Shown here: positions 18,640 through 41,706 of the stretch, in pieces
How the letters are laid out: every line of letters starts with the position of its first letter
Position numbering within the stretch: position 1 is the first letter of the stretch
Origin: a virus
Lineage: Duplodnaviria; Heunggongvirae; Uroviricota; Caudoviricetes
IMG/VR virus record: IMGVR_UViG_3300028534_000019
Coordinates: 31,091-95,090 of that record
Length of the DNA: 64,000 bases
Direction: 5' to 3' (one strand)
Translations under genes and position numbers: made by a program
The notes under the pieces: generated by a model
The model's database searches: none
What the model saw: the letters and a program-made list of their open reading frames with translations, nothing else
What the model was told of the DNA's origin: nothing

Positions 18640-20490
18640 ATGGCAGTTATTGGTATAGATTTAGGAACGACAAATAGTGCTGTTTCAGTTTATGAAGTAG
18701 GGGAATTTAAAATTATTCCTAATGCTGAGGGTAAAAATACAACACCTAGTATTGTAGCATTTACAGATAAAGGGGATGTATTAGTAGGGGAATCAGCAAA
18801 AAGACAAGCAGTCACAAACCCTGAAAAAACTATTGAAGCAATTAAAAGAATTATGGGTATGCAATTTAATGAACCTAGATGTAAAGAGGCTCAAGAAAAA
18901 GTACAATATAAAATTGTAGATAAAAATGGTTTGGCCGCTGTTGATGTTGATGGTAAGATTTATACACCACAAGAAATTTCAGCTAAAATCCTTACAAAAC
19001 TAAAAGATGATGCAGAAGCATTTATTGGTAAAGAAGTTACAGATGCTGTAATTACAGTTCCAGCATACTTTAATGATGCTCAGAGAAAGGCGACACAAGA
19101 GGCAGGCGTTATTGCAGGGCTTAATGTACTAAGAATTATTAATGAACCTACTTCGGCCGCTCTTGCTTATGGTTTGGACAAAAAAGGTGAGGAAAATATT
19201 CTTGTTTATGATTTTGGTGGTGGTACTTTTGATGTATCTGTATTAGAAATTGGAGATGGTACTTTTGAAGTTCTTTCAACTGATGGTAATGCTTTCTTAG
19301 GTGGTAAAGACTTTGACCAAATTTTAGTTAATTATATTGCTGAATATTTTAAAGAGAAACAGGGTGTTGATTTAAGAAATGATAAAATGGCACTTCAAAG
19401 ATTATATGATGCTTCAGAAAATGCTAAAAAAGAGTTATCAAGTGTTGTAGAAACTGAAATTAACTTACCATTTATTACTATGACAGAAGCCGGCCCGCAG
19501 CATCTTGTTTTAAAAATTTCAAGAGGTAAATTTGAGGGGTTAGTACAAAATCTTGTAGATGAAACTATTGAACATATTACAACAGCATTACAAGACGCTG
19601 GTTTAAGTGTAGATGATATTAGTGAATTGATTATGGTTGGTGGCTCAACAAGAATACCTTTAGTACAAGAGGCAGTTTCAAAGTATTTTAAAGGTAAAAC
19701 TCTTAATAAATCTGTTAATCCTGATGAAGTTGTAGCCGCTGGTGCTTCAATTCAAGGTGGTGTATTAACAGGAGATGTAAAAGATGTTCTTCTTCTTGAT
19801 GTTACACCATTATCACTTGGTATTGAAACTATGGGTGGTATTGCTACTAAAATCATCCCAAAAGGTACAACTATTCCTGTTAAAAAATCAGAAATCTTTA
19901 GTACAGCAGTTGATAATCAACCAGCAGTTAGTATTGTAGTAGTACAAGGTGAAGCAAAATTAGCAGAAGATAATAAATCTTTAGGACAATTTAATCTTGA
20001 GGGTATAACACCAGCTAAAAAAGGTGTACCACAAATTGAAGTTAATTTTGATGTTGATTCTAATGGTGTTTTGAGTGTATCAGCTATTGATAAAGGAACA
20101 GGTAAAGAACAGAAAATAACAATTACAGGTTCGACAGGTTTAAGTGAAGAAGAAATTAGAAAGATGATTGATGATGCTGAAAAACAAAATCAAGAAAAGG
20201 CTGAAAAAATTAAAGCAATTGAAGCAAAAAATGAATTGGATGCTACTCTTTCAAGAATTAAAAACTTTAATGATGAAGAAAAAAATGAAGTGCTATCAGC
20301 TAAAATTTCTGATGTTGAAGAATATGTAAAAGAAGATAGAACAGCAGAAGAAATTAGAAAAATTAGAGATGAACTTGAAGAAGTTTATTTAAAAGCATTT
20401 GAAGAGAAATCAAAAAGAAATGAAGGTGCTGAGGTAAAAGAAAGCACTGAAAATAATGATGATGTTATTGATGCTGAAATTGAAGAATAA
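18640..20490 (+). CDS. dnaK: Hsp70 chaperone DnaK (canonical-looking)
   Basis: [32 protein letters not shown] and the substrate-binding domain [14 protein letters not shown]. Ends DVIDAEIEE. Confidence 0.95.
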
Positions 20491-24447: not shown

Positions 24448-25548
24448 ATGTTAGTTCAAAATAAAAAAGTTCCAAAAGAAACATTAGAGTTATTGGACTC
24501 TAAAATAGAAGAATTTGAAAAAAATACAAATTCAACTGTTTTATATATTACAATTACAGGTTCTGTTCTTTATGGTACTGATAATGAAAATAGTGATTTA
24601 GATTTTAAAGGTATTTTTATGCCTAATCTAAAAGAAGTGCTTATTGGTAATACACCTAGTGCTTTTGTTTTTAATTCAAATACAAAAGATAAAAACTCTT
24701 CTGATGATATTGATTTAACATTACACCCTGTAAATGACTTCTTTAATCATCTTAGAAAATCTGAAACAGGTGCTGTTGATTTACTTTTTAGTATGTTTAG
24801 AGAAGATACTATTGTTTTTGATGATGGTATTTTCACGAACTTTATGAAGAAAAATTATCAAAAGTTTAGAAATTCTAATATGAAAAGTTTTATCGGTTAT
24901 GCTGTTGGTCAAACTAAAAAATTTGGGATTAAAGGTGCTAGATATGAAGAGTTAGATGTTTTTTATAAAGATTGTGTTAATTATTTTAATCTTGCTCCAA
25001 AAGAAAATAAATTAGGTGAATATTGGGATTTTCTTGAACTAAAAGCCCAAGGTAAAAAATATATTAAGTTTACAAAAGCAGAAGGTGCTAGAAGAAATGA
25101 TGGTAGTAGTAATATCATTGATTATATTTCTGTTCTTGGTAAACTATATCATAAAGATGTAACAGTAGGTTATTTTTTAGAAAGAGTTTCTAAATTTTAT
25201 AATCAATTTGGTAATAGAACTAAAACAGTAGCTAAAACTGAATCAAAAACAGATTGGAAAGCAATGAGCCACGCCCTTAGAGTAGCTATGGAAGTTAAAG
25301 AGTTACTTCAATTTGGTTTTATTAAATTTCCATTGACTTATGCTGATGAGATTAAAGAAGTTAAATTTGGTAACAGAGAAGAACAAGAAACATTAGATAA
25401 AATTAGAGATGTATTGGGTGAAGTTGATACAATATTAGAAAATATTGATAAAGATAACTTTCCTTGTGAAATGAGTGAAGAATTACTTAAAAAATTAAAA
25501 TGGGAAGTAATTCTTCTATATAAAGAGTTTTTAGATTTAGGTTTTTAA
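24448..25548 (+). CDS. nucleotidyltransferase-fold protein (Pol-beta superfamily)
   Basis: TGSVLYGTDNENSDLDFKGIF (GS...DhD) and a downstream acidic SSDDIDLTL. Confidence 0.6.
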   Translation: MLVQNKKVPKETLELLDSKIEEFEKNTNSTVLYITITGSVLYGTDNENSDLDFKGIFMPNLKEVLIGNTPSAFVFNSNTKDKNSSDDIDLTLHPVNDFFNHLRKSETGAVDLLFSMFREDTIVFDDGIFTNFMKKNYQKFRNSNMKSFIGYAVGQTKKFGIKGARYEELDVFYKDCVNYFNLAPKENKLGEYWDFLELKAQGKKYIKFTKAEGARRNDGSSNIIDYISVLGKLYHKDVTVGYFLERVSKFYNQFGNRTKTVAKTESKTDWKAMSHALRVAMEVKELLQFGFIKFPLTYADEIKEVKFGNREEQETLDKIRDVLGEVDTILENIDKDNFPCEMSEELLKKLKWEVILLYKEFLDLGF

Positions 25549-25549
25549 A

Positions 25550-26602
25550 ATGGATTTTGATTTTGATGAAATTGTTGCTACAAGAACTTATGTTGATTGT
25601 TATTGTAATGATAATATAAGTTCAGATGATATTAAAGGTATATTAAATCCTAATTTTATTAATAAAACATTAAATGAAATAGATAATTTTTTATATGGTG
25701 GTTTTAATTATTTTAGTAAAAGAGTTCCATTCACTTTAGCTGGTGGTTCTCTTCTTAGTTATTGTTCTTATTATATAGCTACAAAAAATGATTATGGTAA
25801 TCCAAAAAGTTATTTAGATTGGTTGGAATATTCAGGTAATTCTGATATTGATTTATTTTTTGAATGTGAGGAAGATTATATAAAAATGCTTGAAGCAGTA
25901 CAAAAAAATGGTTTTAGTAATTTATCACCTAAACCAAATGCTAAAAGTTTTTATAAAAAAAGAGGAAAAAATAAAAATACAATTTCAATAGATTTAGTAC
26001 ATAAAGATTATTCAGCACCACAAAAACTTATAGATAGATTTGATTTGAATAAGAGTAAAATTGCTATAAGTTCTTATGGCAATCTTTATATAGGTAATGA
26101 TTTTGATAATTATCTTTGTTTAAATCCATTAAATATAAATTATAATACTATATCAAGATTTAAAAAATATTCTATAACAAAACATATACAACCTTCATAT
26201 AAAACTTTACAAGAACTTGTACATATTTTCATTGATAAACAAGATGAAGTATATGAAAGTTTTTATAATGATGAAAAAAGAGATATACCTATGTATGGTG
26301 GGCTTGAAAATCTGATTACAATTATTGTAGATTGTAAAAAGTTATATAACATAGATTTAAAACTTAGTCGTGATGAGGTATTTAACTTATATTTAATATT
26401 GGAGAAACATTTTTCTGAAAAAGATAGATTAATTTCTTTTTTTACAAAAATAATTAATGAAGATAGTATTGATTATATACCTAAAATATATGAATTATTA
26501 TTACAACGACAAGATAGATTTTATGGAAAACAATTTGAAGATAATATGGATGAATCTATTAGAGATAAAGTTTTAGAAACATACCCTGAAATAATGTTTT
26601 AA
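25550..26602 (+). CDS. second nucleotidyltransferase-fold protein with C-terminal TYPEIMF tag
   Basis: LAGGSLLSY...GNSDIDLFFE (GGS...DhD). Ends ...VLETYPEIMF-stop. Confidence 0.5.
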   Translation: MDFDFDEIVATRTYVDCYCNDNISSDDIKGILNPNFINKTLNEIDNFLYGGFNYFSKRVPFTLAGGSLLSYCSYYIATKNDYGNPKSYLDWLEYSGNSDIDLFFECEEDYIKMLEAVQKNGFSNLSPKPNAKSFYKKRGKNKNTISIDLVHKDYSAPQKLIDRFDLNKSKIAISSYGNLYIGNDFDNYLCLNPLNINYNTISRFKKYSITKHIQPSYKTLQELVHIFIDKQDEVYESFYNDEKRDIPMYGGLENLITIIVDCKKLYNIDLKLSRDEVFNLYLILEKHFSEKDRLISFFTKIINEDSIDYIPKIYELLLQRQDRFYGKQFEDNMDESIRDKVLETYPEIMF

Positions 26603-28940: not shown

Positions 28941-29846
28941 ATGACATTAGAAAAAGATGGTATATCTTACGAAAAACCGATAGTAACACTATTACAAGAT
29001 ACAGGTATAGGTGTAGCTGAATATGCCGCTAGAACTTGCTATGATAGTTTTAACAATAGTGAAAACACACTAATTAAAGAAGTTAATTACCAACTTGATT
29101 CTTATATAGGTCAAGACCATTATGATGAGTCATACAAAGATGATTTAAACAATATTGAAGATTCTGAATTGCTTAGTGATTTAGCTTGGGCATATCATCA
29201 CCATTCAATTTTAGAACATTCTAATCTATCTTTCTTAATTAAAGGTACTTCAAGAGGTGTACTTCAAGAACACGCTCGACATAGAATACAAGCAATTTCA
29301 GTAAGAAGTACAAGATATACAATGAGTGGTATTATTAATGCTTTTGTTGCTAGTAAATTTCATATTGGTTCAGAATTACAGTTTTTTACTGAAAAGTTAA
29401 TGAATATGGATATGTTTGTAACTACTGATGAAATGTATCAAAAAATTGAAATAGCAGGTATTTTTGATAAACTAAATTTTCAATATAATAACTGTAATGA
29501 ATTTTATGAGATGGCAGTTGCTAAATCTAGTATGAAATTTCTTGAAGCAAATGATAATCCTTATAATGCTTATGATATTTTTGAAAAACTTCAAAAAGGT
29601 AAGAAGAAAAGAAATGTTGGAGATGCTTTTAAACATATAGTTTCAGATAACTGGAAAGTAGATATGGTAGTGACTTTTAATATTAGAAGCCTTAAAAACT
29701 ACTTTACATTAAGAGATAGTGGTGCGGCATATTTTCAAATTAAGTGGTTAGCAGAAGAAATGAAAAAAGCAACACCTATTAAATACTTAAAACTTATTGA
29801 TAAAAAATATAGAGATGTTGATGTTAAAGGAATAGATAATGATTAG
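28941..29846 (+). CDS. thyX: flavin-dependent thymidylate synthase ThyX
   Basis: ThyX motif ...ILEHSNLSFLIKGTSRGVLQEHARHRIQAISVRSTRY (RHR-x7-S). Confidence 0.85.
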   Translation: MTLEKDGISYEKPIVTLLQDTGIGVAEYAARTCYDSFNNSENTLIKEVNYQLDSYIGQDHYDESYKDDLNNIEDSELLSDLAWAYHHHSILEHSNLSFLIKGTSRGVLQEHARHRIQAISVRSTRYTMSGIINAFVASKFHIGSELQFFTEKLMNMDMFVTTDEMYQKIEIAGIFDKLNFQYNNCNEFYEMAVAKSSMKFLEANDNPYNAYDIFEKLQKGKKKRNVGDAFKHIVSDNWKVDMVVTFNIRSLKNYFTLRDSGAAYFQIKWLAEEMKKATPIKYLKLIDKKYRDVDVKGIDND

Positions 29847-31345: not shown

Positions 31346-31549
31346 ATGGATAGCAAAACAGCAGAAGGTTTAGGTATAGCAATTGGTGCTATTATTGTAT
31401 TAATTATAGGATTAGCAATTCAATTAGGTATTTTTTATCTAATCGCTTTAGGGTTGATTTGGGCTTTTGATATAGCAATAGTACCAATTAAATTAGCAAT
31501 TGGAATGTGGTTAGTTAAAATAGTGCTTAGTTTAGCAGTAAGAAAATAA
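31346..31549 (+). CDS. small two-helix membrane protein
   Basis: 67 aa and very hydrophobic (IAIGAIIVLIIGLAIQLGIFYLIALGLIWAF...). Lies immediately upstream of the SPFH gene. Confidence 0.5.
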   Translation: MDSKTAEGLGIAIGAIIVLIIGLAIQLGIFYLIALGLIWAFDIAIVPIKLAIGMWLVKIVLSLAVRK

Positions 31550-31567: not shown

Positions 31568-32455
31568 ATGGATAAAGGTTTATTTGGAATTATTGGAGCA
31601 GGTGTATTAGTAGTTATGCTATTAATTTTAGGTGCTACATCAGTTTATACAGTTGATGAGGGTAAAGTTGGTATTGTAAAGACTTGGGGTAAAGCAGTAA
31701 AGCAAGTTAATCCCGGACTTCACTTCAAAATGCCTATTGCTGATGAGGTTGTAGAGATTGAGGTAAGAACAAGAAAAAATGTTGAAACTATGAGTATTGC
31801 TACAAGTGAGCAAATGGCGGCAAAAGCAACTGTTTCTATGAACTGGACTGTTAATAAAGCAAGTGTTTTAGAACTCTATAAGAAATATGGCTCACTTGAC
31901 CAATTTGAAAGTAGAATTTTAGACCCAAAACTTAGAGATGCCACAAAAGAGGGTATTGCTAAATTTACAGCAGAACAAAATATTAAGAACAGAGGTGTAA
32001 GCACACTCAAAGTTAAGGAATTATTTATTAACCAAATTAAAGGTTATCCTATTACTGTTAATGGTTTTCAAATTGAAGATATTCAATTAAGTAAAAAATA
32101 TCTTGCTTCAATTGATGCTAAACAAACAGCTAAAAATGAAAGAGATGCTGAAAAATTTAAACTTGAAAAACAAGCCCTTGAAGCACAAAGAGCAGTAAAT
32201 ACAGCAAATGCTGAAAGAGATGCCGCTAAAGCAAGAGCAGATGGTGTGGCTTATAAAATTGAAGCAGAAGCAAAAGCAAATGCTAAGAAAATTGCCCTTA
32301 TTGCTGGAGCAGAAGCAAAAGCAATTAAACAAAAAGCACAAGCACTTAAAAATAACCCTGCTATTATAGACTATATGAGAGCAGAAAAATGGAGTGGGAA
32401 TTATCCTACTACTATGATGGGTAGCAACCCAAACATTCTTATGAAATTAAAATAA
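31568..32455 (+). CDS. SPFH/band-7 (HflK/C-prohibitin-like) membrane protein
   Basis: N-terminal transmembrane segment, then VYTVDEGKVGIVKTWGKAVKQVNPGLHFKMP..., with an Ala/Lys-rich coiled-coil C-terminus. Confidence 0.8.
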   Translation: MDKGLFGIIGAGVLVVMLLILGATSVYTVDEGKVGIVKTWGKAVKQVNPGLHFKMPIADEVVEIEVRTRKNVETMSIATSEQMAAKATVSMNWTVNKASVLELYKKYGSLDQFESRILDPKLRDATKEGIAKFTAEQNIKNRGVSTLKVKELFINQIKGYPITVNGFQIEDIQLSKKYLASIDAKQTAKNERDAEKFKLEKQALEAQRAVNTANAERDAAKARADGVAYKIEAEAKANAKKIALIAGAEAKAIKQKAQALKNNPAIIDYMRAEKWSGNYPTTMMGSNPNILMKLK

Positions 32456-32914: not shown

Positions 32915-33183
32915 TTGAAAATTATTTTGATTGGTTTTTAAATAATTCTGAAGAATTAAGTGATTTTAGGAATGATTTTTTATATACGATAATAACTATT
33001 GAAACAGCACCAAAAATGGAACTTAGTTTATTCTATGTTTTTAAAGATTTAGGTATTAATCTTGATATATCTGATATTAGTGTTAAGGTTAATAGTACAA
33101 GTTCTAGTTTAAGTGTTTCAGATAATTTAAAAGAAAAACTAAAACTCTATATAAAAGAAAAATATCCTGAAATTATATTCTAA
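32911..33183 (+). CDS. small protein with C-terminal KYPEIIF tag
   Basis: 90 aa. Ends ...LYIKEKYPEIIF-stop. Confidence 0.5.
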   Translation: MIENYFDWFLNNSEELSDFRNDFLYTIITIETAPKMELSLFYVFKDLGINLDISDISVKVNSTSSSLSVSDNLKEKLKLYIKEKYPEIIF

Positions 33184-33245
33184 TTAATTTTAATTTAAGC
33201 ATTTAATAGATATAATATCACATATAAAAGGAAAAAGGAACAAAA

Positions 33246-33461
33246 ATGAGTTTAACATATAAACAGATTACAGAACATATTTCTAAGATTAAAGAAAATA
33301 TTTCTATTCTTGAAGATAGACTTGATACTGAATGTAAAAGTGCTGAGTCTAATAGTTGTATTGCTAAAACATTACTAGAAGAACTTGATAAGCAAGAGAT
33401 GGCTTTAATGGTAGCTGAAGATTATTTTGATAGAGTAATAGATAGAGGAAGAGGAGATTAA
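33246..33461 (+). CDS. hypothetical small protein
   Basis: 71-aa ORF. Confidence 0.4.
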   Translation: MSLTYKQITEHISKIKENISILEDRLDTECKSAESNSCIAKTLLEELDKQEMALMVAEDYFDRVIDRGRGD

Positions 33462-33464
33462 AGA

Positions 33465-34577
33465 ATGAAAATTACAGAGATTAAACCTATTTTACAGTTT
33501 TCTAAAGATGCTGATGATGCTGTAATCATTGAGGGTAAACACGGTATTGGTAAATCAGAAATAGTTAAACAATATTGTTCGGAAAATGGTTATTTTTATA
33601 CTGTTTTATTTTTAAGTCATCAAGAAGTTGGTGATTTGATTGGTATGCCTTTTGAAAAAAATGGTATTCAATATTGGTCTAAACCATCTTGGTTAGTAAG
33701 AATGGAAGAAGCATCAGCAAGAGGGGAACATAATGTTTTACTCTTAGATGAGTTAAACCGAGCCCAAACTGATGTATTACAAAGTGCTTTACAACTTGTT
33801 TTAGAAAGACAAATTCACGAGCATTTCTTACCTACTACTGATGGTGTAAGAAGTCAAGTAATTGCTTGTATTAACCCTGATGATGATTTATATCAAGTAA
33901 TTACACTTGACCCAGCACTAAAAGATAGATTTTTACATTTAAAAACAAGTGAAGATTTACAAGGATGGGTTAAATGGGGTGGTGAAAAAGGAGTACCTGA
34001 TGTTGTTATTCATTACTTGCTTGAAAATGAAAATGATTTTCATAGTACAAATGAAGATGGTGAGGGTGCTACACCAAGAAGTTGGTATAAATTAAGTCAA
34101 TTCTTGAAAATATTTGAAGATAAAGAAGTTGAAGAATTTCAACTTTGGGAGATTATTAAAGGTAAAGTAGGTTCAAGTATCGGTAGCAAATTCCTTAACT
34201 TTTATAATACTCATAGTACATTTATTGATGTTACAAAAATTAAAAAGTTTTTAAATAAATATAAAAGAGATATTTCTGATTTACCTGAAATTGGTGCTGA
34301 ATTAGCTAGTTATATTAAAGGTCTTGAACAAGTAACTAAAGTAGAACAAGTTAATAAACTATATCACGACAGTATTGAAAAAATTAAAGATACTAAAGTT
34401 ACTATGGATGATGAAGATATTTTCACTATTTTTGCTATGCTTCACGCTTTTGAAATAGAAGTAACAACATCAGTTATGAAGCAATGGAAAAATGAAAGTG
34501 TGAGTGATTTTATGGATTTTGTTAAAAAAGATAATAAAGAACTCATTACATTAATAACAAGAAGATTAAAAACATAA
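33465..34577 (+). CDS. MoxR-family AAA+ ATPase
   Basis: Walker A EGKHGIGKSE. MoxR signature LLLDELNRAQTDVLQSALQLVLERQI (cf. DEINRAxxKTQSALLEAMQE). Confidence 0.8.
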   Translation: MKITEIKPILQFSKDADDAVIIEGKHGIGKSEIVKQYCSENGYFYTVLFLSHQEVGDLIGMPFEKNGIQYWSKPSWLVRMEEASARGEHNVLLLDELNRAQTDVLQSALQLVLERQIHEHFLPTTDGVRSQVIACINPDDDLYQVITLDPALKDRFLHLKTSEDLQGWVKWGGEKGVPDVVIHYLLENENDFHSTNEDGEGATPRSWYKLSQFLKIFEDKEVEEFQLWEIIKGKVGSSIGSKFLNFYNTHSTFIDVTKIKKFLNKYKRDISDLPEIGAELASYIKGLEQVTKVEQVNKLYHDSIEKIKDTKVTMDDEDIFTIFAMLHAFEIEVTTSVMKQWKNESVSDFMDFVKKDNKELITLITRRLKT

Positions 34578-34592
34578 AAGAGGTATTAAAAA

Positions 34593-34802
34593 ATGTATGC
34601 TTTAATAGGTTATAATGATGAGTATTATTACATTCAAATTTTTTCAGAAACTGATGTTGTGTATGGTTATATAATATATAACTTTAGTGGGGATAAAAGT
34701 TTAGTAGTTGATAATTTCCCAATTAGTTCAGTATTAAAAAGGTTTGAAACATTATATACTATTGAAGAAATACAAAATTTATACCCTGAATTAAAGTTCT
34801 AA
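34593..34802 (+). CDS. small protein with C-terminal LYPELKF tag
   Basis: 69 aa. Ends ...EEIQNLYPELKF-stop. Confidence 0.45.
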   Translation: MYALIGYNDEYYYIQIFSETDVVYGYIIYNFSGDKSLVVDNFPISSVLKRFETLYTIEEIQNLYPELKF

Positions 34803-34814
34803 GAAAGGTTTTAT

Positions 34815-35183
34815 ATGGTAAAATTTCATAAAGATTATGATTTTAAAGGTGCTGATTTAGAAATCTTAAAAAAATTTCATAAAGATAATAATATTTCAAG
34901 AGTTGTATTAGATATAGAACTTAAAAAAGATAAAATTATGTTTTATTGGATTGAATATTCTAATTTTAGATATTTGTATGTTGATGATTTAAAAAGAAGT
35001 AGAGATATTAATATTAGCATATTCAAAATTAATGATATTATTTCTATAACAAATAGAGATTTTAACACACAAATATATTTTAAAGATGATATGTTTTATA
35101 TACCAAATAATAAAAATACTGATGTATTAATTGATGAATTTATCGAAGGTGATACATCAGTGAAAATTTTAAGAAAGATTTAA
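34815..35183 (+). CDS. hypothetical protein
   Basis: 122-aa ORF. Confidence 0.45.
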   Translation: MVKFHKDYDFKGADLEILKKFHKDNNISRVVLDIELKKDKIMFYWIEYSNFRYLYVDDLKRSRDINISIFKINDIISITNRDFNTQIYFKDDMFYIPNNKNTDVLIDEFIEGDTSVKILRKI

Positions 35184-35219
35184 TATTTTTTAGTGTATAA
35201 TGTCATATAAAGGATTAAA

Positions 35220-36473
35220 ATGGCTAAGAGTAATTTAAGAAGTGAAATTATTGAGGAAACTGTTATAAATGCCTTTTCAAATAAGAGAGATGGTTTTGTA
35301 AATGAGTATGCTTTTTATTTTCATATGTTTGCTATGTGTAATATAATTGAAACAGAAGATGTAGAGTTAGCAGGTGTTAATTTTATTAAAAAATGGAATT
35401 TATATATAAATCCTAAAGAGTTTCAAAAATATTCACTTAATCAAAGACTTGGTATAATTAAGCACGAAATGCTTCACATAATTTTTAACCATTTAGTAAG
35501 AATGGAAAACAAAGAAAAAGAAGAATGGAATTTAGCTACTGATTGTGCTATTAATCAAATGATTAGAAGTGCTGATTTACCTAAAGAAAGAGTAGATACA
35601 AAAAGTCTAAGTGAATATTTGGGTGTTGATGTACCTACTAATCAAAGTGCTGATTATTATTATGATTTAATTATGAAAAATAAAAAACAACAAAATAAAT
35701 GTGGTGGCAGTTCATCAGGTGGTTGTCCACAACAAGGTGATGGTAGTGGTTCTGATGAAAGTGATGGTTTAGGTACATTAGATGACCATAATAAATGGGA
35801 AGAGTCGGAAAGTATGGATGGTATAGAAGAACTTATTGAATCTTCTGTTAAAGATATGGTTTCAAAAGCCCAAGACAAAAACAGAGGTCTAACACCACAA
35901 GAACTTAATGAAATTATTGAGATTATTTTTGGTAAATCTGTTGTTAATTGGAAAAGTGTTTTAAGAAATATTGTTTCTAATAGAAGAGTTAATAAAAGAT
36001 ATACAATTCAAAAAAGGAATAGAAGATTCCCAAAAAGAATAGAAATTAGAGGTACAACAAAAGAGAAAAAATTTGATATTGTTGTTATACTTGATATTTC
36101 AGGTAGTATGAATGATAGTGAAATTCAAGATGGTTTAAATGAAATTAAAGCAATTGCTAAATTAACAAAATCTAGTATTAAGATAATTCAAGTCGATACA
36201 ACTGTTAAAGAAGTTCAAGAGTTTACAGCAAAGACAAAAACATTTAATAGACTTGGTTGTGGTGGTACAATGATGTATCCAGCACTTCAATATATAAAAG
36301 ATAACAAAATAGATATGGATTGTGGCATTTTGATTTCAGATATGATGATTGAAAGTTTAGATACTTGGGAACAAAAAGGTTTAGCACCAAAATGTAAATT
36401 TATCTTTTTGAATACTAGTAACCACTCACTAAAAACAACAACAAGAAAAAACTATATGTTTTTTGATTTATAA
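35220..36473 (+). CDS. VWA-domain protein with N-terminal HExxH putative metallopeptidase domain (DUF2201-like, MoxR partner)
   Basis: IKHEMLHIIFNH (HExxH), a Gly/Ser linker, then a VWA MIDAS motif VVILDISGSMND. Confidence 0.75.
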   Translation: MAKSNLRSEIIEETVINAFSNKRDGFVNEYAFYFHMFAMCNIIETEDVELAGVNFIKKWNLYINPKEFQKYSLNQRLGIIKHEMLHIIFNHLVRMENKEKEEWNLATDCAINQMIRSADLPKERVDTKSLSEYLGVDVPTNQSADYYYDLIMKNKKQQNKCGGSSSGGCPQQGDGSGSDESDGLGTLDDHNKWEESESMDGIEELIESSVKDMVSKAQDKNRGLTPQELNEIIEIIFGKSVVNWKSVLRNIVSNRRVNKRYTIQKRNRRFPKRIEIRGTTKEKKFDIVVILDISGSMNDSEIQDGLNEIKAIAKLTKSSIKIIQVDTTVKEVQEFTAKTKTFNRLGCGGTMMYPALQYIKDNKIDMDCGILISDMMIESLDTWEQKGLAPKCKFIFLNTSNHSLKTTTRKNYMFFDL

Positions 36474-36485
36474 AAAGGAAATAAA

Positions 36486-36833
36486 ATGGAATATTTATAT
36501 ATAATTTTAATTGGTTATGCTTTTAATTTTGCTGTTGAAATTATTTGGACAATACTTACAATTATTGTAACCACTGGTTCTATAATACAAGACCCAAAGA
36601 GTATGTTAGAACTTAAAAAATTAGAATCTTTAACAGCTAGATATAAATTGTTAAATAAAGATATACCCTTTAGTAAAAAAAGCACTGAGAAAATAGCTTC
36701 GGCTTTTCCTTTTGCTTCAATAGTTGGTATGATTCTATTAACATATAAAATTAAACAAAATAATGGTTTAGTTGGTTATATTGAGAGTGAAAATAAAAGA
36801 TTTGAAGAAATAATAAAAGAGCAAAAAGGTTAA
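36486..36833 (+). CDS. membrane protein
   Basis: 115 aa with N-terminal hydrophobic helices YIILIGYAFNFAVEIIWTILTIIV. Confidence 0.45.
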   Translation: MEYLYIILIGYAFNFAVEIIWTILTIIVTTGSIIQDPKSMLELKKLESLTARYKLLNKDIPFSKKSTEKIASAFPFASIVGMILLTYKIKQNNGLVGYIESENKRFEEIIKEQKG

Positions 36834-36835
36834 AT

Positions 36836-36901
36836 TTTTTAAGTTTCATTTAAGTCTAATATGTTATAATTTTACATATCAAAAGACAAAAAGGATTTAA
36901 A
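36836..36901 (+). repeat. 66-nt promoter/RBS module, copy 2 (see 6640-6705)
   Basis: Near-identical to copy 1, with one mismatch. Confidence 0.85.
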
Positions 36902-37321
36902 ATGATTTTAATCATAGATACATTATTTACAGAAAGTGTTGCTTTAACAGTTATTCAAGAAAAAGAGAATGAAAAAAGAGTTAAAGAAGTTAATTATAAA
37001 GATGTTAAAAAAGAAATTGAAAATAACACTTTTAATATTTGTAATTTAAAAGATGATGTTATAAGATTTATTAAAATAAATGATGTTCCTGCTGATGTTT
37101 TTGAAAGTTTTAAAGAGTATTTAAGAGGTTGTTTATTTGAATTAACAGTTAAAAACCTTAAAAAAGGTTTTGAAGATACTTTGAAAATACAAGAAGTTAC
37201 TAAATCAATTAATGATTTAGATATTAAAATTTCTATTGCTGATAATGTTTTTGAATTAGGACAATTATCAATAGCATTAGATTATTATAAAAATGAATTA
37301 GATAAAATAAAAGGGTTATAA
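36902..37321 (+). CDS. hypothetical protein
   Basis: 139-aa ORF behind the repeated module. Confidence 0.5.
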   Translation: MILIIDTLFTESVALTVIQEKENEKRVKEVNYKDVKKEIENNTFNICNLKDDVIRFIKINDVPADVFESFKEYLRGCLFELTVKNLKKGFEDTLKIQEVTKSINDLDIKISIADNVFELGQLSIALDYYKNELDKIKGL

Positions 37322-38174: not shown

Positions 38175-39122
38175 ATGTTTGTTGTTAGAAAATTGCTTGA
38201 AGAAGCAAATGATAATTATTTTAAAAGACTTAATGATAATGAAATATCTAAAAATGATATAGAAATTTATGAAACTATTTTCCCTATTAGAAAATTAGAT
38301 GCTAGAAAATTAGATGATTTTGTTTCTAAAACTAACATTGATAATCTATTAATTAAAATTTCAAAACTAGATAATTCTTATATTAAAACTTTACTTAATG
38401 ATGTAATACTGATATTATCTAATGAAAAACCAAACTCAAGTCTAGCAGAAAATCTAAATCTTGTAAAAATGAGAATTGAAATAGATTTAGATGATGATGT
38501 TAAAAATTTTATATATGCTGAGGATATTATAGAAGTTTTAAAAACATTACCTAAAAGAACATTTATTGTAGGTGGTTTTGTTAGAGATTCAATAGCTAAT
38601 AGAAGTGCTAATGATATGGATTTTTGTACTGAAAATAGCTATGAAGATGTAAAAAAAGTTTTTGAAAAAAATAAAAACTTCTCTATTAAAGAAACAGGTA
38701 AACATTTTTCTGTTTTGATTGTTACAGATAAAAATAATCTTGAATCTTTTGAAATTGCTCAATTAAGAAAAGACAAAGATAATGGTGGTGCTGAAATAGG
38801 AACTATTATAGATGATGCTGAAAGAAGAGATTTTATGAATAGTGCTATTTACTTTGATATTAATTCTAAAGTATTAATTGACCCTCACGGTCAATCAATA
38901 GATGATAGTGTCAGAAATGTAATTAGATTTATTGGCAAACCTGAGGATAGAATAAAAGAAGACCCTCTAAGGGTTCTAAGATTTTATAGATTTATGGGTA
39001 GAGGTTGGGTAGCTGATTCAAAATCATTAAAAGCAGTGAGAACTAATTTTAGTTTAATGATGAATGAAACATCTCATAATAGAGTTATGAGTGAAATTGA
39101 AAAAATGGTAATGGGAGCATAA
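38175..39122 (+). CDS. class-II tRNA nucleotidyltransferase (CCA-adding / poly(A) polymerase) head+neck, truncated
   Basis: Head motif GGFVRDSIANRSANDMDFCT, motif B ERRDFMNSAIYFD, then LIDPHGQSIDDSVRNVIRFIG and EDPLRVLRFYRF. At 315 aa it lacks the body and tail. Confidence 0.8.
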   Translation: MFVVRKLLEEANDNYFKRLNDNEISKNDIEIYETIFPIRKLDARKLDDFVSKTNIDNLLIKISKLDNSYIKTLLNDVILILSNEKPNSSLAENLNLVKMRIEIDLDDDVKNFIYAEDIIEVLKTLPKRTFIVGGFVRDSIANRSANDMDFCTENSYEDVKKVFEKNKNFSIKETGKHFSVLIVTDKNNLESFEIAQLRKDKDNGGAEIGTIIDDAERRDFMNSAIYFDINSKVLIDPHGQSIDDSVRNVIRFIGKPEDRIKEDPLRVLRFYRFMGRGWVADSKSLKAVRTNFSLMMNETSHNRVMSEIEKMVMGA

Positions 39123-39451: not shown

Positions 39452-39772
39452 GGGGATGATATGGTTTCGACTGGAAGTCATAGCACTAATGATACCTTTT
39501 AAAATTAAACGCAAACAACACAGATTACACTGGTAACACAGTGCTTTCAGCATAGTCTAAGGACTTGACTGAGGGGTTTTTAAGTTTTACCTTGCAACAG
39601 AAAAACTTATCCTTTTCGTTTTATATGGTTGTATGTCCTTAACATACATTAAAGTTTGTAATCTTTTCAAAATTACACATAAAAGTTAATAGTTCTTGGT
39701 TCTTTTAAAAACTAGAACATATCATTAGTGTGGATTTTTAGGACTCGGGTTCAATTCCCGACATCTCCACCA
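39452..39772 (+). ncRNA. ssrA: tmRNA (SsrA), 321 nt including encoded CCA
   Basis: 5' GGGGAUGAUAUGGUUUCGAC pairs with 3' CAUCUCC-A-CCA, including a G3:U70 wobble. T-arm UCGGG-UUCAAUU-CCCGA. The tag-leader UUUUAAAAUUAAAC-GCA-AAC-AAC matches the recalled C. jejuni ssrA leader. Confidence 0.9.
39511..39555 (+). other. tmRNA tag-peptide reading frame: ANNTDYTGNTVLSA-stop(TAG)
   Basis: The resume codon GCA follows AAAUUAAAC as in the host-type ssrA recalled from memory. The tag is 14 aa and shares ANNTDY with the Helicobacter tag as recalled, but its C-terminus VLSA differs from the host AKAA. Confidence 0.7.
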
Positions 39773-39843: not shown

Positions 39844-41706
39844 ATGAGTCAAGATATTGTTTTAGGTATTGATTTAGGTACAACAATGAGTGTAATATCA
39901 TATTACGACCCCCACGAAAAAGCAGTCAAACTTATTAAAGATAAAGAACAAAAAGTTTTATTTCCATCAGTTGTTGCTTTGGTTGATGGTAAATGGGAAG
40001 TTGGTGAAAGGGCTTTAGAACAATATGAAGTAACTCCTGAATTAACAATAAGAAATATTAAAAGACTTATGGGAACACCATTTTATTCTGATGGATGTAA
40101 ACAAGCAAAAAATATAATCAGTTCAAAAGTTGTTAATATGGATGGTATGGCAGGTGTTGAGTTGATGGGTAAACAATATTCACCTGAAGAAATTTCCTCA
40201 ATCATTCTTAGTTTTTTAAAAGATACAGCAGAAAAACATTTTGAAAGATTGAAATTAGATTATAATATTAGTGGTGTTGTTATAACAGTTCCAGCATACT
40301 TCAATCATAACCAAAGAACAGCCACAAGGCGTGCTGGAGAGGTAGCTGGACTAAATGTATTAAGGATAGTTAATGAGCCGACAGCGGCTTCTCTTGCTTA
40401 TGGTTTACAAAATAAAGAAGATGGTAAAATAGTAGCAGTTGATTTAGGTGGTGGTACATTTGATGTATCAGTAATTGATATTTCTGATAGTACATATAAA
40501 GTTCTAAGTACAAATGGTAACTCTTATTTTGGTGGAGAAGACCTAAATAATAAAATTTTTAAAAATTTAGTAGATTTTATAAAGGCTAATATTGGAATAG
40601 ATATTACACTAAGTGATAGGTCACAAGCAATATTAAATGAAGAAATAGAGAGAGTAAAACAAGAACTTTCTTTTAATAAATCTTCTTACCTAAATGCTAA
40701 TGATATTTTTGAAAAAGACCCTTATAATTTTTCAGCTAAGATTACAAGAGAAGAATTAGAAGAAATTCTTGATTTTGGAGAAGTTAAAAAACACATAATT
40801 AAGGCTATTGAAGATGCTGATGTAAAATATGAAGAAATACAAGATGTTGTTTTAGTTGGTGGTTCAACAAGAATACCTATGTTGAAAAAAATAGTTTCTA
40901 AATTATTTGATGGTAGAGAACTTTATGATAAATTAAACCCTGATGAGGTAGTTTCAATAGGTGCTTCTATTCAGGGTGCTATTATTTCAGGTTATATTGA
41001 TGATATTTTGTTAATTGATGTTGCTTCTTTATCTTTGGGTATAAAATTAGATGACGAAACATTTTTACCAATTATTAAAAAAGGAACAGTATTACCAGCA
41101 GAATTTAATGATAATGTTACAACTTCTGAGAATGACCAAAAATTCTTAGTTTTTAATATAGCCCAAGGTGAAGCAGAAAAATTTAGTGATAATATTTTCT
41201 TAGGTAACTTTATTTTTGAGGGTTTTGATACCGGACCGGCAGGTTATCCAAACATAACTGTAACAATAAAACAAAATTTAGATGGTATTATAGAAGTATT
41301 AGTTAAAGATGAAAATTCTAAAGCAAAAGAAACTTATCTCATTGAGGGTGAATATAATATTTCACAAAGTAGAATACAAGAATTAACAGCTAAAAATGAA
41401 GAAAGTAATGAAGAAAACAAAGAAGAAAATGAAAGAAAAAGATGTTTATCGAGAATAAAATATAAATTGTTTGAAATTGAAAGATATGCTGAAAAATTTG
41501 ATTCTGAGAGAATGAGAGAATTATATAAAAATGGTTTGGATGCCATAAAAGAAGATAAACTAAAAGCAAGTGATTTATCAGTTATAGAAAATTATCTATC
41601 AAGTAGATATTTTAGTGTTATGGCTTCACACCAAAAAGAAATAGAAAACAAATTAGAAGAAAATGCTAGAAATTATGCTAAAAAACTTAGAAAAAAGGAA
41701 AAATAA
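39844..41706 (+). CDS. second, divergent Hsp70/DnaK paralogue
   Basis: [36 protein letters not shown] and substrate-binding DVASLSLGIKLDD. 620 aa. Confidence 0.9.
   Translation: MSQDIVLGIDLGTTMSVISYYDPHEKAVKLIKDKEQKVLFPSVVALVDGKWEVGERALEQYEVTPELTIRNIKRLMGTPFYSDGCKQAKNIISSKVVNMDGMAGVELMGKQYSPEEISSIILSFLKDTAEKHFERLKLDYNISGVVITVPAYFNHNQRTATRRAGEVAGLNVLRIVNEPTAASLAYGLQNKEDGKIVAVDLGGGTFDVSVIDISDSTYKVLSTNGNSYFGGEDLNNKIFKNLVDFIKANIGIDITLSDRSQAILNEEIERVKQELSFNKSSYLNANDIFEKDPYNFSAKITREELEEILDFGEVKKHIIKAIEDADVKYEEIQDVVLVGGSTRIPMLKKIVSKLFDGRELYDKLNPDEVVSIGASIQGAIISGYIDDILLIDVASLSLGIKLDDETFLPIIKKGTVLPAEFNDNVTTSENDQKFLVFNIAQGEAEKFSDNIFLGNFIFEGFDTGPAGYPNITVTIKQNLDGIIEVLVKDENSKAKETYLIEGEYNISQSRIQELTAKNEESNEENKEENERKRCLSRIKYKLFEIERYAEKFDSERMRELYKNGLDAIKEDKLKASDLSVIENYLSSRYFSVMASHQKEIENKLEENARNYAKKLRKKEK

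Follow-up and report, generated by a model that had tools for sequence, protein, structure and literature searches.

This report concerns two linked phage genes, one for a MoxR-class AAA+ ATPase and one for a predicted zincin metallopeptidase fused to a VWA domain, carried on a 64,000-nucleotide stretch of a tailed-phage genome (positions 31,091 to 95,090 of IMG/VR record IMGVR_UViG_3300028534_000019; hereafter, the window). Through profile searches, structure prediction and comparison of loci, we found that the two proteins belong to the phage N4 gp24/gp25 family (phrog_1297 and phrog_1314). The pair is not in itself novel, being a new member of a known, widespread family, nor is it a phage oddity. 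We also found that small proteins of this phage and its relatives share a C-terminal YPE tail that is, as far as we could find, undescribed and that is statistically tied to the pair. We lean, with some reserve, toward reading the module as an N4 gp24/gp25 remodeller with a zincin of its own and a host-side target, probably a component of an anti-phage defence, in preference to a virion protein or to a metalloenzyme that needs its cofactor inserted.

The ATPase and its zincin-VWA partner

The first-pass annotation had proposed a MoxR ATPase and an HExxH/VWA partner separated by two small open reading frames (ORFs). All four ORFs were recovered on the + strand at the positions it had listed (Table 1), as were the strings quoted from them: DELNRAQTDVLQSALQLVLERQI, residues 95 to 117 of the ATPase; IKHEMLHIIFNH and DISGSMND, residues 80 to 91 and 292 to 299 of the partner; and the LYPELKF end of the 69-amino-acid protein. 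The hidden Markov model assignment that it had suggested as a check was run, and AAA_5, DUF2201_N and DUF2201 all scored above their cut-offs; a MoxR-class ATPase with an HExxH/VWA partner bearing a metal ion-dependent adhesion site (MIDAS) is now backed by these models, by motif conservation and by predicted fold.

The ATPase matched Pfam AAA_5 (E 1.6e-10; 41.5 bits against a cut-off of 22) but stayed below the curated cut-offs for AAA_3, or MoxR proper (21.9 vs 27), and bpMoxR (18.6 vs 27), which makes it MoxR-class but of a distinct subfamily. Its top PHROG was phrog_1297, "ATPase" (3.9e-52), and it gave a weak match (2.4e-9) to phrog_249, "porphyrin biosynthesis," which we take to be CobS-like. 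In an alignment of six divergent family members, Walker A (G24-K30), the D95-E96 pair, sensor-1 N137, the arginine finger R155 and sensor-2 R205 were invariant, and the catalytic motif set is intact. By analogy, the protein would be expected to form a hexamer.

The partner carries both domains of the DUF2201_N/DUF2201 proteins (COG3864) in N-to-C order, with DUF2201_N at residues 60 to 270 (E 7e-19; 68.9 bits, cut-off 23.2) and the VWA-like DUF2201 at residues 287 to 378 (E 2.6e-10; 40.9 bits, cut-off 26.4). Its top PHROG was phrog_1314 (2.4e-68), and VWA_CoxE remained below threshold (21.4 bits vs a cut-off of 26.4; E 1.9e-4). H82, E83, H86, H91 and D108 of the first domain were invariant in 50 homologues and, separately, in the N4-like, PBS1-like, Alteromonas and Vibrio phage relatives; the same was true of the full MIDAS (DxSxS ... 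T ... D) of the second. The predicted third zinc ligand is H91 or D108. The first-pass annotation had conceded that the HExxH region might lack such a ligand and be simply a helical linker, but the invariance of H91 and D108 and the zincin fold of the modelled N-domain argue otherwise.

An AF2 model of the full-length partner (mean predicted local distance difference test [pLDDT] score, 85.7) matched only VWA folds in a fold search, and residues 1 to 270 were therefore modelled separately. This N-domain model matched zincins, including the aspzincins peptidyl-Lys metalloendopeptidase and deuterolysin; the VWA (Rossmann-like) fold is thus seen in the full-length model and the zincin fold in that of the N-domain. 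A PDB sequence search with the partner-family profile gave no significant match. The Gly/Ser segment noted at the outset between the HExxH motif and the VWA domain corresponds to residues 170 to 182, a disordered insert lying within the DUF2201_N region whose sequence and length differ between homologues. The partner, then, is a minimal zincin domain that a flexible Gly/Ser segment and helices connect to a VWA domain whose MIDAS is complete. As read from its sequence, the N-domain would bind zinc and act as a protease.

In phrog_1314, RefSeq and many GenBank records, these proteins carry the label "HNH endonuclease." We give this identification virtually no credence: the protein is fully covered by DUF2201_N and DUF2201, its folds are those of a zincin and a VWA domain, and no HNH Pfam family matched even at an E value of 0.1. 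The label that N4 gp25 and its homologues bear probably stems from an annotation error that has spread between records.

The kinship with N4 was evident for both genes. N4 gp24 matched the window ATPase by BLASTP (9e-16 over 300 amino acids), N4 gp25 matched the window-family profile (hhalign 99%, E 2e-18, 326 columns), and the top PHROGs of gp24 and gp25 are identical to those of the window proteins. The two pairs also share gene order and strandedness, and in the N4-like phage LIT1, where genes for the helicase and DNA polymerase come after the pair, a small ORF likewise lies between the two genes. On the other hand, the N4 and window proteins are only about 22 to 24% identical; N4 is a podovirus with a virion RNA polymerase, whereas the window comes from a large T4-type myovirus; and two unrelated small ORFs are inserted between the window genes, while the N4-likes lack YPE-tailed small proteins. 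N4 gp24 and gp25 are core genes of N4-like phages and are transcribed as middle genes, without assigned function (PMC4193335, PMC7650795); the literature that we searched held no functional data on them, and in the PA5oct and Alteromonas papers that use the names gp24 and gp25, these denote unrelated genes.

By tblastn, the VWA protein was found in 128 phage records and the ATPase in 523, including N4-likes annotated as "N4 gp24-like" or "N4 gp25-like" and, among the ATPase matches, RaK2-like jumbo phages. In all, the family occurs in N4-like, rV5-like, RaK2-like, PBS1-like, Staphylococcus jumbo and marine T4-type phages. Iyer et al. described the architecture for jumbo phages in 2021 (PMC7824862). 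For closer comparison, a profile of the VWA protein was used to gather 58 viral and 22 bacterial loci, to which we added loci of annotated phages and metagenomes. A scan of IMG/VR with the single window protein found no close relative, whereas the profile-based scan did find loci; a near-DNA search of window positions 33000 to 37000 against phage genomes gave no match. In about 60 of about 82 loci, the ATPase and VWA genes share a strand and are no more than 6 kb apart, in either order, with gaps of -34 to about 2,560 bp and 0 to 11 ORFs in between. The two genes overlap or abut in genomes of Thermotogota (Kosmotogaceae) and Saprospiraceae, in unrelated chromosomal neighbourhoods; they are 3.6 kb apart on opposite strands in rV5-like phages and about 45 kb apart in Vibrio phage Va1. 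A third (client) gene conserved beside the pair was looked for in the phage and bacterial neighbourhoods, and none was found. The pair is ancient and tightly linked, with a presence in many phage lineages and some bacteria.

Possible targets of the pair

The sole members of these two families with functional data are bas54_0063, a MoxR ATPase, and bas54_0055, a putative metallopeptidase, of the Vequintavirus Bas54 (phage MaxBurger), whose genes are 3.6 kb apart on opposite strands. bas54_0063 is the gene matched in our family search and aligned with the ATPase family profile, window protein included, at hhalign 99.6% (E 7e-24); bas50_0056, the Bas50 orthologue of bas54_0055, contains DUF2201_N and DUF2201 and matched the window-family profile at 99.1% (E 5e-19). 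A recent preprint reported that bas54_0063 and bas54_0140 (99 amino acids) are "specifically required to overcome DS-28," which in E. coli CFE311 is a two-gene system predicted to serve defence, and that bas54_0063 and bas54_0055 are nonessential on K-12, where transposon insertions were recovered at 60 of 64 and 81 of 86 TA sites, respectively; the log2 fold changes in conditional essentiality were -7.23 for bas54_0063, -2.20 for bas54_0055 (adjusted p 0.009) and -5.48 for bas54_0140 (bioRxiv 10.1101/2025.11.20.689424). bas54_0055 is thus codepleted in what appears to be the host strain carrying DS-28, a system of which we found no characterisation in the literature searched. These data argue against an obligatory role in virion assembly, at least in Bas54, and for a host-specific, probably counter-defence, role; taken with the early/middle, nonstructural gene context, they point to a host protein or complex as the most likely target. 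In this regard, the setting of the pair fits a host-directed role: in the window and in its relatives, the two genes lie far from the head and tail modules, surrounded by genes of nucleotide metabolism, replication and host interaction.

The same evidence bears on the idea that the pair acts as a virion assembly chaperone with a processing protease, the ATPase and VWA domain folding or assembling structural proteins which the zincin then trims, by analogy with the MoxR-VWA system that tail development in the archaeal virus ATV is reported to require (Iyer et al. 2021). Such a role was proposed for the group 2.2 jumbo phages, which encode a MoxR AAA+ ATPase and a vWA protein with an N-terminal metallopeptidase (Viruses 13:63; PMC7824862); the domain architecture given in that description is identical to that of the window pair; the contig of the present phage is about 101 kb. 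Moreover, virion preparations of a Staphylococcus jumbo phage yielded a MoxR-like ATPase, with a warning from the authors about carry-over (PMC10638138), and roseophage RPP1 has some virion protein genes near its gp24/gp25 homologues (PMC4193335); conservation of the core pair in N4-likes would also suit an essential morphogenetic function. Nevertheless, both Bas54 genes tolerate insertions on K-12, so the pair is not needed there for infectious virions, N4 gp24/gp25 are middle rather than late genes, and the pair is remote from the structural modules. We therefore regard a role in virion assembly as unlikely, though it deserves to be kept in mind.

How might such a pair act on a host protein? 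A template is offered by NorQ/NorD, where cryo-electron microscopy placed a finger of the VWA domain within the AAA+ hexamer's pore; hydrolysis of ATP twists that domain and stretches the linker leading to the N-terminal one, and the authors proposed that the MIDAS or the linker touches acidic residues of the target (PMC13036017). The window partner has the same layout of N-domain, linker and VWA domain as NorD, its N-domain being a conserved protease-type domain. By extension from NorQ/NorD, CbbQ/CbbO and Rea1, the ATPase hexamer would grip the VWA domain of the partner, and the MIDAS would capture an acidic residue on the target protein. ATP hydrolysis would then twist or stretch the partner together with its bound target, whereupon the fused zincin might cut the target or, alternatively, the pulling might switch the zincin on. 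The target would most likely be a host protein or complex, probably a component of an anti-phage defence. Wss1/Spartan with Cdc48/p97 offers a functional analogy only, with no homology at the level of families: SprT matches were far below cut-offs, the ATPase there belongs to another AAA+ clade, and those proteases have Cdc48-binding motifs where the window partner has its VWA domain.

The first-pass annotation had called the pair RavA-ViaA/CoxD-E-like, an architecture that it described as serving metal-cofactor insertion or complex remodelling. Membership of the MoxR-VWA class held up, and of the two functions we favour remodelling; the pair would work in the manner of that class but does not belong to the RavA-ViaA or CoxD-CoxE subfamilies, and plain metal insertion fared less well. 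A classical cofactor insertase or enzyme activase (as in CobS/CobT, NorQ/NorD, CoxD/CoxE and CbbQ/CbbO), acting on a phage or host metalloenzyme, would be the best-established MoxR-VWA role (PMC13036017, PMC9976466), and the weak matches of the ATPase to phrog_249 and of the partner to VWA_CoxE tend in that direction. Against it, AAA_3 and VWA_CoxE fall short of their curated cut-offs, no client gene is conserved with the pair in phages or bacteria, and the zincin motif, catalytic Glu included, is strictly conserved, which a pure inserter would not need. By comparison, the partners in NorQ/NorD, CbbQ/CbbO, RavA/ViaA and CobS/CobT have no protease domain, and a defined metalloenzyme is encoded nearby. 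We consider metal insertion very unlikely here.

A host-directed remodeller-protease, probably with a counter-defence role, is therefore our best reading, in preference to a metal inserter. Several considerations weigh against it. The favoured role is extrapolated from Bas54, which is no close relative of the window phage: the proteins are only about 22 to 24% identical, so that the target, or indeed the kind of role, may be another. The Bas54 data come from a preprint, its test with the cloned system covered the ATPase and a small unrelated gene, and depletion of the partner was moderate. Sheet "Data S6" of its Extended Data Table 8 is titled resampling_K-12_vs_CFE303, whereas the embedded command line and file names refer to a "311" sample, which leaves a small uncertainty in the host assignment (bioRxiv 10.1101/2025.11.20.689424). 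A strict core pair across the N4-likes, together with its presence in free-living bacteria, fits a housekeeping role better than strain-specific counter-defence. The PADLOC defence-system models gave no match for the ATPase, the VWA protein or the 69- and 122-amino-acid proteins, a result that is uninformative on counter-defence, and an NCBIfam scan of the same four proteins gave nothing useful. Finally, protease activity, the hexamer and the ATPase-VWA contact are all features that we infer. A counter-defence role, drawn as it is from a single preprint on a distant homologue, should accordingly be understood as probable.

Small genes around the pair and their YPE tail

The first-pass annotation had also suggested that the pair and the two ORFs between them form one functional cassette. 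The ATPase and VWA genes are indeed a widely conserved linked pair, but the 69- and 122-amino-acid proteins are not conserved parts of it: neither has a homologue in related loci, and a conserved three- or four-gene cassette that includes them was rejected. The flanking 71- and 115-amino-acid proteins are similar in this respect. None of the four small proteins matched Pfam, PHROG, NCBIfam or PADLOC or had a detectable relative among the 5,801 ORFs of related loci, and by this measure they are lineage specific.

The six genes may nevertheless be expressed together. The element TATAATWYYWCWTA (TATAAT-N3-(T/C)ACATA) occurs in nine copies in the window, against 0.4 expected; eight are on the + strand, and the element probably represents a class of phage promoter whose start region is conserved. 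(A scan for sigma-70 promoters gave 69 sites against 63 expected in such AT-rich DNA and was uninformative.) The copies at 33211 and 36865 bracket exactly six genes (33246 to 36833), and no terminator-like site was found on the + strand between them. Cotranscription of the six genes is therefore plausible, in which case the pair would be expressed with four small lineage-specific genes, one of them with a YPE tail.

This tail proved to be far from unique to the 69-amino-acid protein. Seven ORFs of the window end in YPE-(I/L/Y)-x-F-stop, and of the eight YPE tripeptides present across all + strand frames, seven sit at a C terminus. Among the closer viral loci, the pattern [Y/F]PE-x-x-hydrophobic-stop falls at the exact C terminus of 45 ORFs (0 at a control offset), and 61 occurrences were counted anywhere in 478,000 residues. 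Vibrio phage Va1 (loci L096-L099) encodes 34 tailed ORFs, all on one strand, amounting to about 9% of its genes and 13% of those of 120 amino acids or fewer; 11 of them form a single run at 118.4 to 122.1 kb. The tail is also present in loci L001, L006, L007, L010-L046 and L066 and on many proteins of metagenomic relatives. It was not seen in N4, in the rV5-like, PBS1-like, AD45-P3-like and bacterial loci examined or in 50 kb of a Campylobacter CP220-type phage, and a literature search for the motif strings found no description of it.

The consensus is hydrophobic-K-E-K-[Y/F]-P-E-x-F-[I/L]-COOH, preceded by an amphipathic segment (a 12-residue example is EEIQNLYPELKF). Once trimmed of the tail, 70 tagged proteins fell into 66 BLAST components; these are thus unrelated proteins with a common tail, and a paralogous gene family was rejected as its source. 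A nucleotidyltransferase-like orthologous group retains the tail in three phages. The synonymous codons of the tail vary among phages, which indicates selection on the peptide and not on the DNA; an element acting as DNA, for instance a promoter or a site of recombination, brought to mind by a Pro codon that is always CCT and an over-used TAC in the window, was rejected in view of the freely varying synonymous positions in relatives. Likewise rejected was a clamp- or single-stranded DNA-binding protein (SSB)-binding replisome motif, as in Va1 the tail is missing from the polymerase, clamp, clamp loader, gp32, RNase H and primase. None of 10 Va1 tagged proteins tested belonged to any PHROG, and neither PHROGs nor Pfam contain the tail.

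In the closer clade, a small YPE-tailed gene recurs beside or between the members of the pair. Tagged genes made up 20 of the 89 small genes between or immediately beside the two, compared with 25 of 393 farther out in the same 6-kb flanks (Fisher p 2e-5; within-locus permutation p 5e-5), the count covering 30 dereplicated loci that are not phylogenetically independent. In Va1, where the two genes are separated, each has tagged ORFs as its immediate neighbours. What is seen here is an association and not a mechanism, and it could reflect the pair sitting in early small-gene clusters.

One speculative possibility is that the MIDAS of the gp25-like protein reads the YPE tail as a docking tag. 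The YPE-tailed proteins would then serve as exchangeable adaptors or clients, docking by way of the invariant Glu or of the C-terminal carboxylate and each bringing in a different host target, for instance a defence component, and the pair would be a common ATP-driven engine that extracts and cleaves the recruited host proteins; alternatively, the tagged proteins might themselves be timed substrates. MIDAS sites typically bind an acidic ligand residue, as in integrin I-domains or in Rea1 with Rsa4, a habit that would suit such docking. The exact C-terminal placement of the tail, its conservation as a peptide on otherwise unrelated proteins and its enrichment at the pair, even where the two genes are 45 kb apart, all lend themselves to this idea, as does the need of Bas54 for both its ATPase and a small protein against DS-28. 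Yet that small protein, bas54_0140, is unrelated and has no YPE tail, pair members of N4-like, rV5-like, PBS1-like and bacterial origin occur without tails, most tagged genes of Va1 lie far from the pair, and the enrichment is open to the reservations given above. Docking of the tail on the MIDAS is proposed here from sequence and gene position, and we consider it quite unlikely.

Gene neighbourhood and the source phage

The window is about 26% GC, with nearly all of its genes on the + strand, and encodes a large terminase, a T4-like baseplate wedge protein, a primase and an exonuclease; one protein has a short tape-measure-like segment. The source phage is a large T4-type myovirus. Its terminase is about 41% identical to those of Vibrio phages phiKT1024 and pv27 and about 39% identical to those of Campylobacter CP220-type phages. 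The exact zincin-VWA protein is also recorded on a metagenome contig of about 101 kb. Among genome collections, the best match of the VWA protein (32% identity) was on a 10.6-kb contig binned with a Sulfurovum sp. metagenome-assembled genome (SDAZ01000062.1); this match, the 26% GC content and the CP220-like terminase are hints of Campylobacterota hosts for the lineage.

The neighbours of the pair in the window include genes for ThyX, an SPFH protein, a phosphoesterase, a CCA-adding enzyme and Hsp70 (Table 1), and those in relatives include genes for a clamp loader, ClpP and Apyc1-like proteins. Anti-Pycsar Apyc1-like genes (metallo-beta-lactamase fold) were seen a few kilobases from the pair in two related phage contigs (L006, 8845 to 9684; L007, 10735 to 11295), which fits the idea of a counter-defence-rich neighbourhood. 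Just upstream of the putative six-gene unit, the SPFH/Band 7 gene and the gene for a very hydrophobic protein before it form a possible membrane scaffold module. The transfer-messenger RNA (tmRNA) gene of the phage is placed between the CCA-adding-type nucleotidyltransferase gene and the second Hsp70 gene. Of 50,697 phage records, only 39 had a tblastn match to Hsp70, most of them megaphages or likely contamination from hosts, and by this count phage Hsp70 appears to be rare.

Table 1. Features of the window discussed in the text (positions in the window; aa, amino acids)
Feature	Position	Strand	Basis or remark
Genes and sites of the putative six-gene unit
Promoter-like element TATAATATCACATA	33211-33224	+	In the 62-nt gap before the ORF at 33246; upstream of the putative transcription unit
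71-aa acidic, predicted helical protein	33246-33461	+	ORF only; first of the putative unit
MoxR-class AAA+ ATPase, N4 gp24 family, 370 aa	33465-34577	+	AAA_5, phrog_1297, BLASTP to N4 gp24
Walker A GKHGIGKS, residues 24-31	33534-33557	+	G24, G27, I28, G29 and K30 invariant in the family alignment
Walker B acidic pair D95-E96 in LLLDELNR	33747-33752	+	Invariant in the family alignment
69-aa acidic protein	34593-34802	+	YPE tail YPELKF-COOH at 34782-34799; one of the seven window ORFs so ending
122-aa lineage-specific protein	34815-35183	+	ORF only
Predicted zincin metallopeptidase fused to VWA/MIDAS, N4 gp25 family, 417 aa	35220-36473	+	DUF2201_N, DUF2201, phrog_1314, hhalign, AF2
Predicted zinc site H82-E83-x-x-H86, H91, D108 (HEMLHIIFNH ... 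ATDCAINQ)	35463-35543	+	Invariant in homologues; zincin fold of model
Gly/Ser-rich disordered insert, residues 170-182	35727-35765	+	Inside the DUF2201_N region; pLDDT <50 in both models
MIDAS residues D292-x-S294-x-S296, T350, D374	36093-36341	+	All invariant
115-aa protein with hydrophobic N-terminal segment	36486-36833	+	Last of the putative unit; maximum 19-aa hydropathy 1.98 near the N terminus
Next promoter-like element TATAATTTTACATA	36865-36878	+	Marks the start of the following unit
Elements and tails across the window
Copies of element TATAATWYYWCWTA	6669, 15833, 31246, 32568, 33211, 36865, 42373, 58845	+	Mostly in intergenic gaps, on the coding strand
Copy of element TATAATWYYWCWTA	58592	-
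Ends of YPE-tailed ORFs	7157, 8423, 18041, 26602, 31217, 33183, 34802	+	YPE tail
Other genes
Hsp70/DnaK, full-length paralogue 1	18640-20490	+	phrog_22485
Nucleotidyltransferase	24448-25548	+	phrog_388
YPE-tailed nucleotidyltransferase-like protein	25550-26602	+	phrog_4400, weak
ThyX	28941-29846	+
Very hydrophobic 67-aa protein	31346-31549	+	Directly before the SPFH/Band 7 gene
SPFH/Band 7 protein	31568-32455	+	Pfam 4.7e-30
PolyA_pol/CCA-adding head-domain nucleotidyltransferase	38175-39122	+
tmRNA, phage-encoded	39452-39772	+	ARAGORN, tag peptide ANNTDYTGNTVLSA; Rfam RF00023, 90.8 bits vs gathering score 47
Hsp70/DnaK, full-length paralogue 2	39844-41706	+	phrog_22485; Pfam HSP70 4e-141
Sole minus-strand gene block, five ORFs of 170-262 aa	44791-47935	-	Coincides with local reversal of GC and AT skew

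The gp24/gp25-type pair belongs to the core gene set of the N4-likes. Our analysis joins the window genes, the N4 prototypes, the jumbo phage description of 2021 and the transposon screen of 2025 into one protein family, and it is this joining of a scattered literature, together with the YPE tail, so far undescribed, and the association of that tail with the pair, that constitutes its added value. With these family ties established, the function of the family becomes directly testable in the tractable phages Bas54, N4 and Va1. As for the tail, it marks dozens of dark-matter genes per genome and, if it were a true docking or degradation signal, would give a common logic to a large block of phage genes that have no function assigned. 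Were the docking-tag reading to prove correct, it would provide the N4 gp24/gp25 core genes with a mechanism and define a new class of phage short linear motif.

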